A stretch of DNA of 44,386 bases. It comes from Desulfobacterales bacterium (GTDB taxonomy: Bacteria > Desulfobacterota > Desulfobacteria > Desulfobacterales > UBA5616). Each line of letters begins with the position of its first letter. Positions within the stretch are counted from its first letter, which is position 1. This document shows positions 22,899 to 44,386 of this stretch, in pieces. The DNA is taken from positions 1-44,386 of the forward strand of contig JAWODC010000073.1 in NCBI GenBank assembly GCA_046483495.1, given 5' to 3'. The notes under the pieces are model-generated. The model had not been told where the DNA came from. It saw only the letters and a program-made list of their open reading frames with translations, and made no database searches. Made by a program: the position numbers and the translations under genes.

Positions 22899-24539
22899 AT
22901 GAACTTAAAATATATTTTGAATGCAATTAACAGGATGAATACTATCATGCCCATTTATTCGAGGGGGTGGCTCAAGGTTGCCTTACCTGCGGTAGCAGGT
23001 TTTTTTTTGGTCGTCACCGGATGGGCGGTGACAGAAATAAAAAAAAATGAATCTTATGAATCGGGCGATATCCTTATTCAATCGGTAAAGGAGTTTGCAC
23101 CACTGGAGCGGGCGGCGGTGGTCTTCCACCACGATCGCCACACCGATGTTCTCGAAGCACATCAAAAAGGCTGTTCGACCTGCCATTTAACCCATGAAAA
23201 CCGGCTTTCCCTTAAATTCAAGCGGCTGGAAGACAAAGGCAGGCAGTTCCTCATGGAAACGTATCATACCAATTGTATCGGATGCCATCGGGAATTGAGG
23301 GGAAAGCAGCAAACCGGAGGTCCGTTGACATGCGGTGAATGTCACCGGGAGCCTGTGCCTGAGATCGATCGGGACTCCATGTCCTTCAATCATTCCCTGC
23401 ATTACAGGCATGTAAAGGCTGCCGACAAAGAATGTGGTCTGTGCCACCACGTTTATGACAAAGAGGCCGAAAAAACCGTCTACGCTAAGGGAGAAGAGGG
23501 GTCCTGCCGGTACTGCCACAAGCAGGAGGACAGCGACACGGGCATGTCGTTCCGGAAGGCCGCCCACATGTCCTGTCTGTTCTGCCACATGGAAAAACAG
23601 GCGCAAAACCAGACCGCCGGTCCGGTCAAATGCCGGGGATGTCATGATCCGGGGGAAAAGCAGGCCATCAAGACCGTTAAAGACGTGCCGCGGATCGAGC
23701 GGAATCAACCCGATGTCGGGTTTGTCGAACGTTATCCAAAAAATCCTGAGATGACGGCCTCGGATTACCGAATGGGCCTTGTGCCGTTCGATCACCGTAA
23801 TCATGAAACGCAGGAAGACACATGCCGGGTCTGCCATCATGAAAGCCTCGACACGTGCAGCCGATGCCACACGGTCAAAGGAGCTAAAGAGGGGAATTGG
23901 GTAACGCTCGCTCAGGCCATGCACCAGGAGGGCGAACAGAAGAGCTGCATCGGCTGCCATTTACGAAAGACGGAGAAAACCTCCTGCGCCGGATGCCACG
24001 GCGTGAAGCCGGCCCGGAAAACGGAGGATTCCGATTGCTTGCGATGCCACTTGGCAGCTGTTGGAAAGGATGACCTGCCGTCGGCTGTTGTCGCAGACAG
24101 CGGTCTTGCGGAAAGAATGCTGAACCGGGCGAAAAAGGGCGCCGAAACCCCGAATTGGGAAAGTCCTCCCGAAACGGTGAAAATCGACGCATTGGAGAAA
24201 ACATACGGCCCGGTCGATTTGCCTCATGGAAAAATCATTTCGGCATTAAAGAAAGGGGTTGCAGAAGACGGTCTGGCGCAGTATTTTCATAATGGCGATG
24301 AACAGTTGTGCCGGGGATGCCATCACAACAGCCCCCCCAGTGAAAACCCCCCCCGATGCGGAAGCTGCCATGGAAAACCCTTCACCGGCAAGGATCCGCA
24401 CACACCGGGATTGATGGCGGCCTATCATCAGCAGTGCATGGGGTGCCACCGGGAAATGAATGTATCCAAACCCCCGTCAAATGACTGCACAGCATGCCAT
24501 AAAGAAAAAGGAAAAGAAATCGTTTCGGCATTCCGATAA
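22899..24539 (+). CDS. hmcA: High-molecular-weight 16-heme cytochrome c HmcA
   Basis: 16 CxxCH motifs counted and an N-terminal hydrophobic signal; first gene of the hmc cluster. The true start may be a downstream Met. Confidence 0.92.
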
Positions 24540-24583: not shown

Positions 24584-25618
24584 ATGACACTATCACGACG
24601 AAAATTTTTAGGGTGGTTCGGCGCCACAGCCGGGTCGATGGCAGCGGCGGCAAAAAAGGGTGAAGGGGCTTCGGCGGGACAGTTCGCCGGATATTCCGAC
24701 AGCATCGGCATCTTGCACGACACCCGTTTATGCATTGGATGCCGCCGGTGTGAAGACGCCTGCAACCGGGTGAACTCGCTTCCGGCCCCTGAAAAACCGT
24801 TTACCGATTTGTCCGTTCTGGAACATTACCGCAGAACCACGGCCGAGGCCTTTACCGTCGTCAACCGTTTTGACGGCCCGGATATGGAAATCAGGCCGGT
24901 ATTTGCAAAAAAACAGTGCAACCACTGCCTCGAACCGGCTTGTGTATCGGCGTGTTTCGTCAAGGCGTTGAAAAAAACACGGCAGGGCCCCGTAATCTAT
25001 GATGCGTCGGTATGCGTCGGATGCCGTTACTGCATGATCGCCTGCCCATTTGAAATTCCGGCTTATGAATACGACAATGCCTTTACGCCACGGGTAATGA
25101 AATGCACCATGTGCTACCCGAGAGTTCAGGAAAACAGGCTTCCCGGATGCGTGGAAGCCTGCCCTACCGAAGCCTTGTCATTCGGGAAGCGAAAAGATCT
25201 CATCCGTATCGCCGAAGAAAGGATCGCAGCTAATGGCGGCACGTATGTGAACCATATTTACGGGGAGCATGAGATGGGCGGGACCGCCTGGCTGACCATT
25301 TCAGCAGTGCCGTTTTCCCGGTTGGGAATGCGGGAGGATCTGGGGAACGTCCCGGCTCCGCTCTTGACGTCCGGGGCATTGAGCGGCGTTCCGATCGTCG
25401 CCGGGCTGTGGCCGGTCCTCCTGGTGGGGATTTACGCTATATCCAGGCGAAAGGACCGCATCGCTGAGGAGGAAAAACGAATCGCCGTTGCCGAAGCGGT
25501 GGAAAAAGCCGAAACAGCGGCTGCCGAAAAGCATGCGCAAACTCTGGAAAAAATGCGGCAGGAAAACAAGACGGAGATCGAACGGGAAGTAAAAAAAGCC
25601 CTGGAAAAGGCGAACTAG
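24584..25618 (+). CDS. hmcB: HmcB periplasmic 4Fe-4S protein
   Basis: Tat signal [42 protein letters not shown] and KCTMC; C-terminal TM helix. Confidence 0.9.
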
Positions 25619-25761
25619 TGTTCATCCAGAAATAGGCAATTTCGCGTGAGTTGAAGGCGGGCGCAAGATCGAAGCCGCAGGAATAGTGTGCTATTTTGAG
25701 GATTTCGATTTTGCGCCCGACGCAGAAATCGCGTGAAAGGGCCGTTTATGGATGGACACGA
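25616..25761. repeat. 146-nt palindromic intergenic element, copy 1 (MITE/REP-like)
   Basis: Imperfect terminal inverted repeats TAGTGTTCATCCAGAAAT / GTTTATGGATGGACACGA with nested internal stems; homologous to 27139-27284. Confidence 0.8.
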
Positions 25762-25795
25762 ACTATCCTCCATCCGGAAATATGAAAGGAGATCG

Positions 25796-26974
25796 ATGGC
25801 CGACTACACGGACAACGCCGCCGGAAAAGGGTGGCTTACCCCATTTAATATCACAGCCGCTGTCATTATTATTCTCGGTCTGATCCTTACGGTGATCCGA
25901 TTTACCCGGGGACTCGGGGCCGTGACCAACCTGTCTCACGACAACCCCTGGGGAATCTGGATCGGGTTCGACCTGCTGGTGGGCGTGGCCCTGGCCGCCG
26001 GGGGATTCGTCACCTCTGCGGCCGTGTATATCTTCGGCTTGAAGCGATACCATTCGGCGGTCAGGCCTGCGATTCTGACGGGATTTTTGGGGTACGCCCT
26101 CGTCGTTGTGGCCCTTACCTATGACGTGGGCCGTGGATGGCGCCTGCCGTACCCCTTTTTCGTCAGCCAGGGAACAACCAGCATATTGTTCGAAGTCGCC
26201 GCCTGTGTGGCCCTCTACCTGACCGTCCTTTTTTTGGAATTTTCTCCCGCGGCCCTGGAATGGCTTGGATTGAAACGGCTGAGAAATCTCATTGTAAAAC
26301 TCACTCTGGTGCTTACCATATTCGGTGTGGTCCTGTCGACACTGCATCAGTCATCATTGGGTGCGCTGTTTCTCATAGCCCCGTCCAAACTCCATCCCTT
26401 GTGGTATACCCCGTATCTGCCGGTGTACTTCTTCGTCACAAGTATCGTCGCAGGGCTTTCCATGGTAATCGTGGAAAGCGCCCTTACCGAAAAGTACTTC
26501 TCTCGACAGATGGATGAAACTCACCGGCTGGAAAAGGAAAACGTGGCATTCGGCTTCGGAAAAGCGGCGTCTTTCATTTTGGCAGGATATGTCTTTATCA
26601 AACTTATCGGAATTTCCACGGACAACGAATGGCGCCTGCTGTTCACGCCTTACGGGGCATGGTTTTTGATCGAACTGGTCGGTTTTGCGGCCTTGCCGTC
26701 GTTTGTCTACGCCCTCGGCGTCCGTGAAAAGCGGATCACTCTCATACGAATCGCCGCGGCATGGTCCGTCCTGGGAATTGTCGTTAATCGGTTCAATGTC
26801 AGCCTGATTGCATTCAACTGGCACTTGCCGGCTGAAAGCCGGTATTTTCCGCACTGGATGGAGATCGGGATTTCCGTATTTCTGGTCACAGCCGGCATCC
26901 TTGTTTTCCGCTTTATCGTTTCACGCATGCCGGTGGTCTACGAGCATCCGGCGTATAAACATGAACTGAAATAA
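25796..26974 (+). CDS. hmcC: HmcC, NrfD/HybB-like integral membrane subunit
   Basis: TNLSHDNPWGIWIGFD, DVGRGWR, STLHQSSLG and KLHPLW. Start set at ATG 25796 after an AAAGGAGA RBS. Confidence 0.9.
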   Translation: MADYTDNAAGKGWLTPFNITAAVIIILGLILTVIRFTRGLGAVTNLSHDNPWGIWIGFDLLVGVALAAGGFVTSAAVYIFGLKRYHSAVRPAILTGFLGYALVVVALTYDVGRGWRLPYPFFVSQGTTSILFEVAACVALYLTVLFLEFSPAALEWLGLKRLRNLIVKLTLVLTIFGVVLSTLHQSSLGALFLIAPSKLHPLWYTPYLPVYFFVTSIVAGLSMVIVESALTEKYFSRQMDETHRLEKENVAFGFGKAASFILAGYVFIKLIGISTDNEWRLLFTPYGAWFLIELVGFAALPSFVYALGVREKRITLIRIAAAWSVLGIVVNRFNVSLIAFNWHLPAESRYFPHWMEIGISVFLVTAGILVFRFIVSRMPVVYEHPAYKHELK

Positions 26975-27002
26975 GGGGGTACCCCGTCATGAAAGGAAAA
27001 TG

Positions 27003-27137
27003 ATGGACTCGGTTTACAATACGCTTCATGAATTTATGGCCCATGCCGAAGGGGTCACTTATATCCTGGTGGTAGCGACGCTCATCGGTATCGCCTTTTT
27101 CTGGCGGTTTTTGAACGGCCGCGATGAAGACAACTAA
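27003..27137 (+). CDS. hmcD: HmcD small membrane subunit (44 aa, below the ORF-track cutoff)
   Basis: MDSVYNTLHEFMAHAEGVTYILVVATLIGIAFFWRFLNGRDEDN; AAGGA RBS; single TM helix; lies between hmcC and hmcE. Confidence 0.85.
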   Translation: MDSVYNTLHEFMAHAEGVTYILVVATLIGIAFFWRFLNGRDEDN

Positions 27138-27138
27138 A

Positions 27139-27284
27139 TAGGTCCATCCGGAAATGAGAACATTCGACTCGGTTCAAGGCAGCCGGGAAATTTAAAATTC
27201 ACGAATACATTGAGTATTTTGAGGCTTACAATTTCCCGTCCAACGCCGAAATAGAGCGAATCAGCCATTTCTGGATGGGCACTA
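27139..27284. repeat. 146-nt palindromic intergenic element, copy 2 (MITE/REP-like)
   Basis: Terminal inverted repeats TAGGTCCATCCGGAAATG / CATTTCTGGATGGGCACTA; same architecture as copy 1. Confidence 0.8.
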
Positions 27285-27305
27285 AATCAGGCTGCGAGGC
27301 TTCAC

Positions 27306-27983
27306 ATGTATGAATTTCTAACCGGACCCATGGCATGGTTGGCGTTCGGCGTCTTTTTTGCGGGGATGATTCTCAGGGTCGTTCTTTATATCATGGGGCT
27401 GGACTGGCGCACGGACAGAGTGACCTACACCCGGAACATCCTGCACGGCATCAGGGGCGCGCTTCGGTCCGTAGTCTTATGGCTGGTACCCTTTGGAACG
27501 AGGTCATGGCGAAAAAATCCGGCGTTTACGGCTGTCGTGTTCGTATTCCACATACTACTGCTGATCACCCCGATGTTCCTTCAGGCCCATCAAATACTTC
27601 TTAATGACGCTTGGGGTTTCCGATTCTATGCGCTGCCCGAGGGCATCGCCGATCTGTTTACACTCGGGGTGATTCTAACGGCTTTCCTGTTGATCCTCCG
27701 CCGCATCAGCGCGCCCGAAGTGAGGAGGCTGACGAATATGTACGATATGTTGGTTATCGGGATCGCCGTTCTGCCCTTCATCACCGGATTCTTCGCCCGA
27801 CACCAGACGGGTTCCTATTCATTTTGGCTGTATACCCATATTATCAGCGGTGAAATAATGCTCATGGCCGTTCCGTTTACAAAACTTTCCCATTTCGTAT
27901 TGTTCTTTCTTTCACGTGCGCAGCTGGGCATGGATTACGGTATCAAACGAGGCGGCATGAAAGGGAAGGGAATGGCATGGTAG
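27306..27983 (+). CDS. hmcE: HmcE, NarI-like cytochrome b membrane subunit
   Basis: About 5 TM helices with His in FVFH, QAH, YTH and TKLSH; position in the hmc operon. Confidence 0.88.
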   Translation: MYEFLTGPMAWLAFGVFFAGMILRVVLYIMGLDWRTDRVTYTRNILHGIRGALRSVVLWLVPFGTRSWRKNPAFTAVVFVFHILLLITPMFLQAHQILLNDAWGFRFYALPEGIADLFTLGVILTAFLLILRRISAPEVRRLTNMYDMLVIGIAVLPFITGFFARHQTGSYSFWLYTHIISGEIMLMAVPFTKLSHFVLFFLSRAQLGMDYGIKRGGMKGKGMAW

Positions 27984-41596: not shown

Positions 41597-44044
41597 ATGA
41601 AAATCGACATGCATGTTCATTCGAAACATTCCCACCGGCCGACCCAATGGGTTCTTCAGAAGATCAACTGCCCGGAAAGCTTCACGGAACCACTGATGAT
41701 TTACCAACTGGCCCGGAAAAAAGGCATGAGCCACGTCACCATCACAGATCACAACAAAATTTCGGGCGCCCTGGAAATCGCACACCTGCCGAATGCCGTC
41801 GTATCGGAAGAGATCACCACGTACTTTCCCGAAGACGGGTGCAAAATTCACGTCCTGGCATATGACATTTCAGAGTCCAGGCATGACGATATTCAAAAAC
41901 TGAGAAGCAATATCTACGAACTGGTTTCCTACCTCAGGCATGAAGGTATTTTTCATGCCGTCGCCCATCCGCTATACGCCGTCAATAACCGTTTCGGTGC
42001 AGGTCATTTCGAAAAACTGCTGATTTTGTTTAACGTATTCGAGCAAAACGGGGCGAGAAGCGGCGAACTGAATGATTTTCTGGAAACATTTTTAAAAAAC
42101 TTGACGTCGAAAGACATCGAAGCTTTGGCAGACAAACACGGCCTTTACCCATTCGGACCCACCCCCTGGAAAAAAGGCATGATCGGCGGTTCGGATGACC
42201 ACAGCTCATTAAATATAGCGCGCTACTACACGGAGGTGGAGCCCGCCGGATCGGTCGGCAATTTCTTCTCTGGAATTGCCGGCGGAAATGCAATCATACA
42301 CCGGACCGATGCCCATCCAAAGACACTCGCCCACAATCTATACGGCATCGCCTACCAGTATTACCATCATAAATTCAACCTGGATAACCGATTGGGCAGA
42401 GATTTTCTTCTCACCTTTTTGAACAGAACGCTGCAAAGCGGCGCAACCCGCAACGGCCGCGTGTCCAAATTGGCCTTTTTAAACCGGTATCGCAGCCGGC
42501 CAAACGTCAAAAAAATACCCGAATCGCTCAAGAGCATTATTCAAAAAGAGACCCTGGACCTGATTCTGAAAGACCGGAAAATATCGAGCCTTATTCGGGG
42601 CAACATCGAACAGCGAAAGCAACTCGAAAAATATTGGTTCGAGGTCGTCAACCAGGTGTCAAACAATGCAACCCATCACCTGGGAAACCAGACCCTCAAT
42701 CATCTCTTTAATGCCAATGTGTTTAAAATATTTCAGTCCCTCGGGCAGATAGGCGGCCTTTACCTGCTTTTATCGCCTTATTTCATCGCCTTCAAACAAT
42801 TCGCCAAAGACAAGACCACAAACATGCAGATAATCGATCATTTTCCGGCAATCTCTAAAAGAGCCGGGCTTGCCCGAACCCCTTTGCGCATCGCCCATTT
42901 CACCGATACATTCGATGAAGTTAACGGTGTGGCCGTGACACTGAAGCAGCAGGTCAGTGAAGCCCGCAGAAAAAATCTCGGTTACACCCTGTTAGTTTGT
43001 GCCGAACCACTTGAACGGCCGCAAAAGGGCATCGAAACCTTCCTGCCGGTCGGCAGCTATCATCTCCCCGAATATCCCCAAATCAGAATACATTATCCAC
43101 CTATCCTTGAGATTCTGGATTACTGCTACAGGGAAAATATCACCCATATCATATCCGCAACACCGGGCCCGATGGGGATCGCAGCATGGATCATTTCCCG
43201 AACCCTGAACATCACCTTTTCAGGCACCTACCATACGGCGATACCGCAGTACGTTCAATTGCTGACCGGCGACAGCACCATGGCCGATTTAAGCTGGAAA
43301 TACATGATATGGTACTATGACCAGATGGATCGGGTGCAGGTTCCCTCTGAAAGCACAAAAAAAGAATTGATGGAAAAAGGCATCAGCGGCGATAAAATTG
43401 ATCTCATCAACCGGGGCATCGATGTCAACCGGTTTCACCCCAAATATAAAAACGCCGTTTTCCAAGACTGCTACGGCCTGCCCGATAATTCGGTTAAACT
43501 GTTGTATGTCGGACGCATTTCCAAGGAAAAAAACATCGACCTCCTGGCTGATGTGTTTATCTCACTTTGCCGTGAATTCAACAACATTCACCTGATTATC
43601 GCCGGTGACGGACCGTATCTGGAGGTTATGAAACATAAACTCGAGGATTTCCCCTGCACCTTCACCGGGTTCCTCGAAGGCAACGACCTTGCCTCTGTTT
43701 TCGCGTCCAGCGATATGTTTGTTTTCCCGAGTACGACAGATACATTCGGCAATGTCGTACTCGAAGCCCAGTCTTCCGGAATTCCGGTGGTCGTTACCGA
43801 CAAGGGCGGTCCCTGTGAAAACATTATCCGAAATCAGACCGGATTTGTCGCCGCCGATAATCATGATGCATTTCGGCGATGCATCCGAATACTGGTAAAG
43901 AATGCTAAAAAAAGGCGGGAGATGGGTCTTGCGGCCAGAAAATACATGGAAAATAGAGCATTTGGAAAGGCCTTTTTAGAAAACTGGGAACAGATCGAAA
44001 AAACGACAGCCTGGTCACCCGGAATCTCGGCAGGTGTTTCATAA
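41597..44044 (+). CDS. PHP-domain / GT4 (GT-B) glycosyltransferase fusion
   Basis: IDMHVHS, ITDHN, AHP and GGSDDH (PHP metal ligands); FTDTFDEVNGVA, YVGRISKEKN and FPSTTDTFGNVVLEAQSSG (GT4). Confidence 0.9.
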   Translation: MKIDMHVHSKHSHRPTQWVLQKINCPESFTEPLMIYQLARKKGMSHVTITDHNKISGALEIAHLPNAVVSEEITTYFPEDGCKIHVLAYDISESRHDDIQKLRSNIYELVSYLRHEGIFHAVAHPLYAVNNRFGAGHFEKLLILFNVFEQNGARSGELNDFLETFLKNLTSKDIEALADKHGLYPFGPTPWKKGMIGGSDDHSSLNIARYYTEVEPAGSVGNFFSGIAGGNAIIHRTDAHPKTLAHNLYGIAYQYYHHKFNLDNRLGRDFLLTFLNRTLQSGATRNGRVSKLAFLNRYRSRPNVKKIPESLKSIIQKETLDLILKDRKISSLIRGNIEQRKQLEKYWFEVVNQVSNNATHHLGNQTLNHLFNANVFKIFQSLGQIGGLYLLLSPYFIAFKQFAKDKTTNMQIIDHFPAISKRAGLARTPLRIAHFTDTFDEVNGVAVTLKQQVSEARRKNLGYTLLVCAEPLERPQKGIETFLPVGSYHLPEYPQIRIHYPPILEILDYCYRENITHIISATPGPMGIAAWIISRTLNITFSGTYHTAIPQYVQLLTGDSTMADLSWKYMIWYYDQMDRVQVPSESTKKELMEKGISGDKIDLINRGIDVNRFHPKYKNAVFQDCYGLPDNSVKLLYVGRISKEKNIDLLADVFISLCREFNNIHLIIAGDGPYLEVMKHKLEDFPCTFTGFLEGNDLASVFASSDMFVFPSTTDTFGNVVLEAQSSGIPVVVTDKGGPCENIIRNQTGFVAADNHDAFRRCIRILVKNAKKRREMGLAARKYMENRAFGKAFLENWEQIEKTTAWSPGISAGVS

Positions 44045-44054
44045 CCATTCACAG

Positions 44055-44386
44055 ATGCATCTCATGAATTCATCACGATCGGTTTTTCCTCTTGCGTTTA
44101 AGCATTTCGTTCGAGAAAGAAACGGGGTTCCGGGCCAGCTCGTCATCCAGATCACGAACCACTGCAACGGCCGATGTCCCCAGTGCGGCATGCGGGTGAC
44201 CGAAACCTTTAAACGGACTTCGCTTTCGGTAGAGACAATCAAAAAAATCATCGACCATGCCGCAAAAAATCACGTTTCCGCACTATCCTTTACAGGAGGT
44301 GAACCCTTTCTGCTCGCCGAAAAAGTCGCAGTGCTGATCCGTTACGCCGGAGAAAAAGACATTCCATTTATCCGCACCGGCACCAA
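44055..44386 (+). CDS. Radical SAM protein, 5' part (runs off the window)
   Basis: Hand translation gives ...PGQLVIQITNHCNGRCPQCGM...LSFTGGEPFL...IRTGT (CxxxCxxC and GGEP motifs). Start is 44055 or 44064. Confidence 0.88.
   Translation, partial: MHLMNSSRSVFPLAFKHFVRERNGVPGQLVIQITNHCNGRCPQCGMRVTETFKRTSLSVETIKKIIDHAAKNHVSALSFTGGEPFLLAEKVAVLIRYAGEKDIPFIRTGT

Follow-up and report, generated by a model that had tools for sequence, protein, structure and literature searches.

Miniature transposable elements with a strand-specific hairpin core and exchangeable ends in the hmc operon of a Desulfobacterales bacterium and across the Desulfobacterota

In this work, we focus on two structured elements, A and B, that lie between genes of the hmc operon of a Desulfobacterales bacterium (GCA_046483495.1), and on the mobile family to which they belong. 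All coordinates refer to the window, that is, the whole 44,386-nt stretch that was analysed, which is contig JAWODC010000073.1 of a 4.19-Mb draft genome of 94 contigs (G000). Our best explanation, to which we give a probability of roughly 80%, is that both elements are 142-bp copies of a miniature inverted-repeat transposable element (MITE), inserted with 6-bp target-site duplications in two spacers of the operon. They are probably mobilised by an IS5-family DDE transposase that acts in trans and was not found in the assembly. What is unusual for a MITE is that a strand-specific, covarying hairpin core is kept while the transposon ends are exchanged.

Both elements are on the plus strand. Element A, a member of subfamily A, occupies positions 25618..25759 in the hmcB-hmcC spacer and runs from GTGTTCATCC to GGATGGACAC. 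It is flanked by the same six bases, GAACTA, on its left (25612..25617) and on its right (25760..25765). Element B, which is close to subfamily B and misses one T at position 2, occupies positions 27141..27282 in the hmcD-hmcE spacer. Its left duplication is TAAATA (27135..27140), the first three bases of which are the TAA stop codon of hmcD, and its right one is TAAATC (27283..27288), identical to the left copy at five of six bases. The preliminary description of this DNA had delimited a pair of 146-nt stretches; both are real structured stretches, but the unit is 142 bp long and the extra two bases on each side belong to the duplications. Its account of common end and loop words, and of stems that differ yet still pair, holds both in the alignment and in the consensus fold. 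The two elements can be aligned over their whole length without large gaps (82% mean column identity over 162 columns with MAFFT), and both are predicted to fold far better than their shuffled counterparts (-78.8 kcal/mol and z -9.6 for A, -56.3 kcal/mol and z -7.1 for B, with 0 of 200 shuffles as good in either case). Among open reading frames of at least 50 aa, a single 52-aa frame on the minus strand overlaps element A and none overlaps element B.

These elements are not a feature of the hmc operon. Indeed, blastn followed by four rounds of iterated nhmmer recovers 201 distinct family loci in the window's genome, 136 of them near full length. Clustering at 80% identity separates subfamilies of 33 copies (A-type), 31 copies (B-type) and 6 copies, together with many singletons. 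Across the 136 copies, the conserved unit extends from GTGYCCATCCRGAAAT to ATTTCYGGATGGRCAC, with terminal inverted repeats GTGYCC... and conserved ends of 16-17 nt. The agreement between the two flanks exceeds that of permuted flanks solely in the 6-bp register, with 3.49 identical bases against 2.46 (standard deviation 0.11). Among the 75 copies with canonical ends, the 6-bp duplication is exact in 11 and matches at five or more of the six bases in 25. The preferred target has the form TANNTA, so that the TA target proposed at first was partly right: TA is present within the 6-bp duplication, but the target is not plain TA. The family thus shows the hallmarks of a MITE, namely a length of 142 bp, no coding capacity, terminal inverted repeats, a duplication of fixed length (6 bp), dispersed copies, and presence or absence between relatives. 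This bears out the suggestion of a non-autonomous mobile family, for which about 200 copies, the terminal inverted repeats, the duplications and the empty sites of a same-genus genome now speak.

Almost all near-full copies (130/136) are intergenic according to a crude custom gene caller. In tandem gene pairs, 38 copies are oriented with the genes and 34 opposite to them, while divergent gene pairs flank another 36 and convergent pairs 22; their placement tracks the shares of intergenic length and there is no orientation bias relative to the neighbouring genes. The orientation relative to GC skew follows a weak trend that is not significant (p 0.06-0.16). Internally deleted forms of 28-55 bp also occur in this genome. 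Two of these mini forms, of 28 bp (C72:53539-53566) and 53 bp (C7:214159-214211), consist of barely more than two ends, and they are internal deletions of the hairpin. Finally, the same-genus genome G001 yields one weak match genome-wide, as compared to about 200 loci in the window's genome, which points to a lineage-specific burst or to a lineage-specific retention.

The hmc operon itself is present in G001, with 73-76% DNA identity to the window. There, the hmcB-hmcC junction measures about 56 nt and the hmcD-hmcE junction about 62 nt, and neither of these spacers contains an element; no element was seen at either site of the hmc operon of G003. As the two sites are empty in these genomes, the elements are not a conserved part of hmc, and the insertion of both of them into the operon is recent. 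One could nonetheless propose, as was done at first, that the pair of hairpins serves the hmc mRNA as dedicated processing or stability signals and thereby fixes the proportions of the Hmc subunits. Both copies are indeed intercistronic, in sense orientation and just 3' of the hmcB and hmcD stop codons, their hairpins are very stable, and stable hairpins within operons are known to be able to protect the upstream mRNA, as established for REP elements. Contigs from RNA-labelled libraries, identical to the window (0 differences), also span element A together with the sequence on either side (25583-25807 in X2; 25509-25721 and 25697-25970 in X3). They fit a co-transcription of element A with hmc without proving it, as DNA may be present in such libraries; contigs of this kind cannot reveal transcript ends, and stretches without contig cover constitute no evidence. 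No contig from the sequencing runs bridges an empty site. Against a role in setting subunit ratios stand the operons of G001 and G003, which lack the elements, the duplications, which mark insertion events, and the roughly 200 other copies that sit in unrelated spacers of every intergenic kind without orientation bias. We therefore consider the elements likely not to be a dedicated regulator of hmc, and a subunit-tuning signal to be very improbable. A side effect of two hairpins of such predicted stability on the hmc mRNA is possible.

The consensus fold of the family is a single hairpin built from four helices: P1, which is made of the inverted repeats, P2 and P3, which are of variable sequence, and the apical P4. 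The junctions that separate them are conserved (GTTCAAGGC facing AACGCMGAAAT, and AACCGCAGG facing TTTGAGGATT). When the consensus sequences of three subfamilies of a single genome are compared, 29 of the 57 pairs vary, and 20 of the 57 have changed on both sides with pairing kept. We extended this to an alignment of 79 diverse copies. Public genomes contributed 67 of these and relatives nine, the remaining three being the two copies of the window and one further copy of its genome. For P2 to P4, the RNAalifold prediction on this alignment contains 31 pairs, 19 of which have changed on both sides. Paired cells amount to 96.2%, against 89.2% in shuffles, and doubly changed cells to 149, against 30 in shuffles, none of the 500 shuffles being as high; when the partners are slid along the alignment, only 29-54% of the cells are paired. 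On the 136 copies of the window's genome, RNAalifold returned no structure, and the consensus fold was used instead.

This pairing is also specific to one strand. The 79-copy alignment contains 294 G·T cells against 27 A·C cells (182 against 26 when two apical columns are excluded), and such an excess of G·T implies that one strand is the folded one. In agreement with this, the better fold of the two strands is that of the top strand in 123 of the 136 copies with RNA parameters and in 122 with DNA parameters. The covariation and the strand-specific pairing together argue that the stems are under selection for a single-stranded, strand-specific hairpin, and the selection on a single-stranded hairpin that had been proposed from two copies alone therefore stands.

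What this selection acts on can be understood in more than one way. The core could be a functional RNA, either a structured non-coding RNA that is mobile or the target of an RNase, with the transposon ends as a mere vehicle and selection acting on the transcript. The pairing does look RNA-like: beyond the excess of G·U over A·C cells, tandem U·G pairs persist in 50 and 58 of the 79 copies and give way elsewhere to G-C, C-G or U-A. The junction words are also the slowest-changing part even within subfamilies, with 0.014-0.020 changes per site against 0.047-0.072 in P1 and P3. Furthermore, for the Correia elements of Neisseria, a role as RNase III targets and as carriers of promoters is described (PMC2649163). 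Folded single-stranded DNA, however, tolerates G·T wobbles too, and other observations go against a transcript as the selected form: neither element A nor element B contains a promoter-like or a terminator-like site, and the copies have no orientation bias to the neighbouring genes. Rfam is likewise silent, with no match at E ≤ 1 between positions 24500 and 28500 of the window, and, at six loci with relatives, nothing but tRNAs and two chance hits to plant-miRNA hairpins, at 24-31 bits for cut-offs of 90-117. Taken together, we hold a functional RNA to be unlikely. The Rfam result also leaves the family without a name, as the preliminary description had found it.

The reach of the core goes well beyond one genome. 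A core of about 90 nt is common, across the Desulfobacterota, to elements whose ends differ and whose duplications are of another length (5 bp, 4 bp, or TA). This can already be seen in the window's genome, where a second MITE family of 18 copies, about 144 bp long and with ends GAAGTGGTTTCAAAACC, carries the same junction and apical words (examples are C27:155-298, C63:28575-28718 and C69:83665-83808). In this second family, TA is found on both flanks in 14 of 17 cases. In a sample of the order, 17 of 41 genomes match, mostly over positions 34-122 of copy B alone. A sample of the phylum has 21 of 201 genomes that match a copy of the class with ends GAGACC...GGTCTC (class 3) at E ≤ 1e-6; some of these genomes belong to other families and match with 86-89% identity across the full 142 bp. 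What had looked like "half" matches in the genome G006 proved to be full copies. Scanning public genomes for a 22-mer of the apical part gives at least 125 loci, nearly all of which, among the matches listed, are named Desulfobacterales or other Desulfobacterota. Two of these loci (L096 and L058) come from bins named as archaea (Methanosarcinales and Iainarchaeum), which are likely mis-binned bacterial contigs. Further copies are thus plentiful, the covariation holds in a larger alignment, and no named family was matched in Rfam.

Each class of ends comes with its own duplication length. The window's class, GTGYCY...RGRCAC, has a 6-bp duplication that is exact at 8 of 9 independent loci of other genomes. 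Class 3 has a 5-bp duplication, exact at 22 of 31 independent loci, and the class GAGSCN...NGSCTC has a 4-bp duplication, exact at 7 of 10. The core is more conserved than the ends and is carried by at least four end classes. Copy numbers can be high: G036, a genome of 3.0 Mb in 580 contigs, has 283 class-3 end matches, which corresponds to roughly 140 copies.

G036 is also the genome that links the family to a transposase. It contains 13 DDE_Tnp_1 matches, on small contigs, and the search among the DDE_Tnp_1 genes of MITE-rich relatives uncovered there an insertion sequence with class-3-like ends 1,459 bp apart. Its product, a protein of 373 aa, has the domains DUF772 and DDE_Tnp_1, and the nearest annotated relatives of this protein (about 30% identity) are all named IS5 family transposases. 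Among 80 relatives from metagenomes, 41 have both class-3 ends 1.3-1.5 kb apart and 31 more have one end. The ends are GAGACCTTTGCAYAAC on the 5' side of the gene and GAGACCTTTGAAAAAC on the other side, with the same A/C difference as between the right and left ends of the MITE. On this sequence evidence, the 1.4-kb IS5-family element with the same two ends is to be regarded as the autonomous partner of the 5-bp class. The insertion sequence and the MITE share only about 17 nt per end, so the core is not a remnant of the G036 element. The transposase with matching termini that one would expect was thus found for the 5-bp class, but not for the GTGYCC class of the window.

Several candidates for the partner of the window's class were examined and rejected. 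In the window's genome, 50 orphan end matches (at most 2 mismatches) turned out to be internally deleted minis and truncated copies. Of the end pairs at long range, those examined were the seven of class 1 and, from class 2, one pair out of two (C3); all of these enclose ordinary genes. The sole DDE_Tnp_1 gene of this genome (C25) has unrelated ends, and in G006 the only end pair at the distance of an insertion sequence encloses no open reading frame of at least 100 aa. The window's genome contains few repeats longer than 400 bp; as it is a draft of 94 contigs, its insertion sequences may simply be unassembled.

In that the element forms an imperfect hairpin over its full length, conserves its bulged bases and differs between its two strands, it resembles attC sites and the ends of IS608. 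It thereby brings to mind the systems that recognise hairpins in single-stranded DNA, such as REP/BIME with RAYT, the palindromes derived from IS200/IS605, or the integron attC sites, rather than a cut-and-paste DDE transposase. Such systems, however, make no direct duplications, and copies of the present family are flanked by duplications of 6, 5 or 4 bp; both ends of the 5-bp class also occur on an IS5-family DDE element. The copies are moreover single and dispersed, without cassette arrays, although no search aimed at a Y1 transposase or an integrase was made. A single-strand system is for these reasons extremely improbable. The same can be seen by comparing the families directly. IS200/IS605 palindromes and REP/RAYT have no inverted-repeat ends, no duplication and a fixed insertion word, whereas the present family has both inverted repeats and variable 6-bp duplications. 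Integron attC sites occur in cassette arrays beside an integrase, with GTTRRRY core sites, and the present copies have ends GTG...CAC. REPs are about 35 nt long, are not known to have duplications and are linked to RAYT transposases. The likeness of our elements to REP/BIME is in position only, as a stable hairpin between the cistrons of a polycistronic mRNA; the present units are of 142 bp, with inverted repeats and duplications.

The bacterial MITEs derived from IS5-family insertion sequences are, like the present elements, small and non-coding, with terminal inverted repeats, short duplications and many intergenic copies, and they have ends in common with an IS5-family element, as does the 5-bp class described here. 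Unlike them, the present family has an interior that is no deletion remnant of the partner insertion sequence, and the same interior is found on at least four end classes. ERIC elements are imperfect palindromes of about 127 bp found in transcribed intergenic regions of Enterobacteria, and we know of no report of class-specific target duplications for them. Homology with ERIC is not supported, as a copy of the family had no blastn match in 5,426 E. coli genomes (E ≤ 10).

The closest analogue in terms of design is the Correia element (CREE/NEMIS). Both are elements of 100-160 bp that form an imperfect hairpin over their whole length, with a core between inverted repeats, hundreds of intergenic copies and forms with internal deletions. 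Correia elements duplicate TA, against 6 bp for the window's class. In the Correia copies L181 and L185, the words CAAGGCG, CCGCAG, TTTGAG and CAACGCCG occur in the same order as in the copies of the window's genome. The 26-bp inverted repeats of Correia elements, TATAGTGGATTAA... (PMC5039591), are unrelated to the GTGYCC... ends of the present family. Homology is not supported: nhmmer finds nothing, local alignment gives z of at most 3, and a word-chain test gives z of about 3 for the 136 copies of the window's genome and about 0.9 for the 79 diverse copies. Nor did the element have a match in the plasmid and phage collections. We found no description of the family in the literature covered, which included that on MITEs in Desulfobacter and Desulfobacterium; the supplement of one MITE catalogue (PMC11602168) lies outside this coverage and may list the family.

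Several observations weigh against the MITE interpretation and the selection that we attach to the spread of the hairpin. The duplications in the window's genome are much decayed, and their identity in the 6-bp register is 58%. As for the partner insertion sequence, its own 5-bp duplication is weakly seen (4 of 35 exact, and 2.09 identical bases against 1.52 permuted). No autonomous element with ends of the GTGYCC class was found in the window's genome or in G006, both of which are drafts, and searches of G000, G006 and G039, all of which carry the window's end class, found no homologue of the IS5-type transposase of G036. Regarding the fold, the counts of compensated cells are inflated because the copies share ancestry, and the 67 public copies were chosen by an exact apical 22-mer, so that the apical conservation in the alignment exists by construction. 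Lastly, the junction words change 2 to 4 times more slowly than the helices, which could mean that selection acts on the inserted copies.

The elements lie close to the genes of the operon, of which hmcB, hmcC and hmcE are on the plus strand. In the window, hmcA, hmcB, hmcC, hmcE and hmcF each exceed their curated NCBIfam cut-off, and the small hmcD lies between hmcC and hmcE. hmcB (24584..25618; NF045715, 500 bits for a cut-off of 420) ends in a stop codon made by the element: its TAG (25616-25618) takes TA from the end of the left duplication and G from the first position of element A. Without element A, the hmcB frame would continue for about 40 codons into hmcC, which implies that the 3' end of hmcB was reshaped either by this insertion or by an earlier one at that position. 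hmcC (25796..26974; NF045714, 661 bits for a cut-off of 550) starts 36 nt 3' of element A, and hmcE (27306..27983; NF045716, 333 bits for a cut-off of 275) starts 23 nt 3' of element B. Adjoining the right duplication of element A, positions 25766..25789 of the plus strand (TCCTCCATCCGGAAAT...) are likely the remnant of the 5' end of a further copy. This segment resembles the first 24 nt of another family copy (…CCATCCGGAAAT…) and overlaps the ribosome-binding site of hmcC, and the end word CATCCGGAAAT is found within it, at 25771-25781. This suggests that the hmcB-hmcC junction underwent two insertion events, the older of which would have been largely deleted. At the end of the window, its last 744 bases (43643-44386) recur with 96% identity at the start of contig C34, and this repeat at the contig ends probably broke the assembly.

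Considering the MITE interpretation as a mechanism, the window's class would be moved by a transposase related to that of G036, with 6-bp staggered cuts at TANNTA. The hairpin core would be kept because master copies need to fold back as single strands, be it top-strand DNA or RNA, in order to spread; such a fold-back might for example bring the two ends of the element together. The retention of the core would then not be owed to any service of inserted copies to their neighbouring genes, and the hmc copies would be by-standers, the stable hairpins of which would lie in the polycistronic mRNA. One can go a step further and suppose that the strand-specific core of about 90 nt is itself what selection maintains, as a structured module of single-stranded DNA or RNA that is phylum-wide and actively promotes its own mobilisation on interchangeable IS5-type ends (6, 5 and 4 bp, or TA flanks). 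We advance this tentatively, and find it doubtful rather than probable. If true, the core could for instance fold back to join the ends or recruit a host factor, and it would be a chassis for several transposases rather than the deletion remnant of a single one.

For the hmc operon, the lesson is one of caution, as the two structured elements that stand out in it arrived by recent transposon insertion, and one of them now supplies the stop codon of hmcB. The family occupies up to several hundred intergenic sites per genome in the Desulfobacterota, and it is best masked or annotated ahead of any search for intergenic RNA motifs there. It deserves interest in its own right, with a core that is better conserved than its ends, that covaries on one strand only, and that is shared by elements of different cutting staggers. 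This pattern is unexpected if MITEs are merely decaying deletion derivatives, and it makes testable the question of whether the mobilisation of a MITE needs its own fold.

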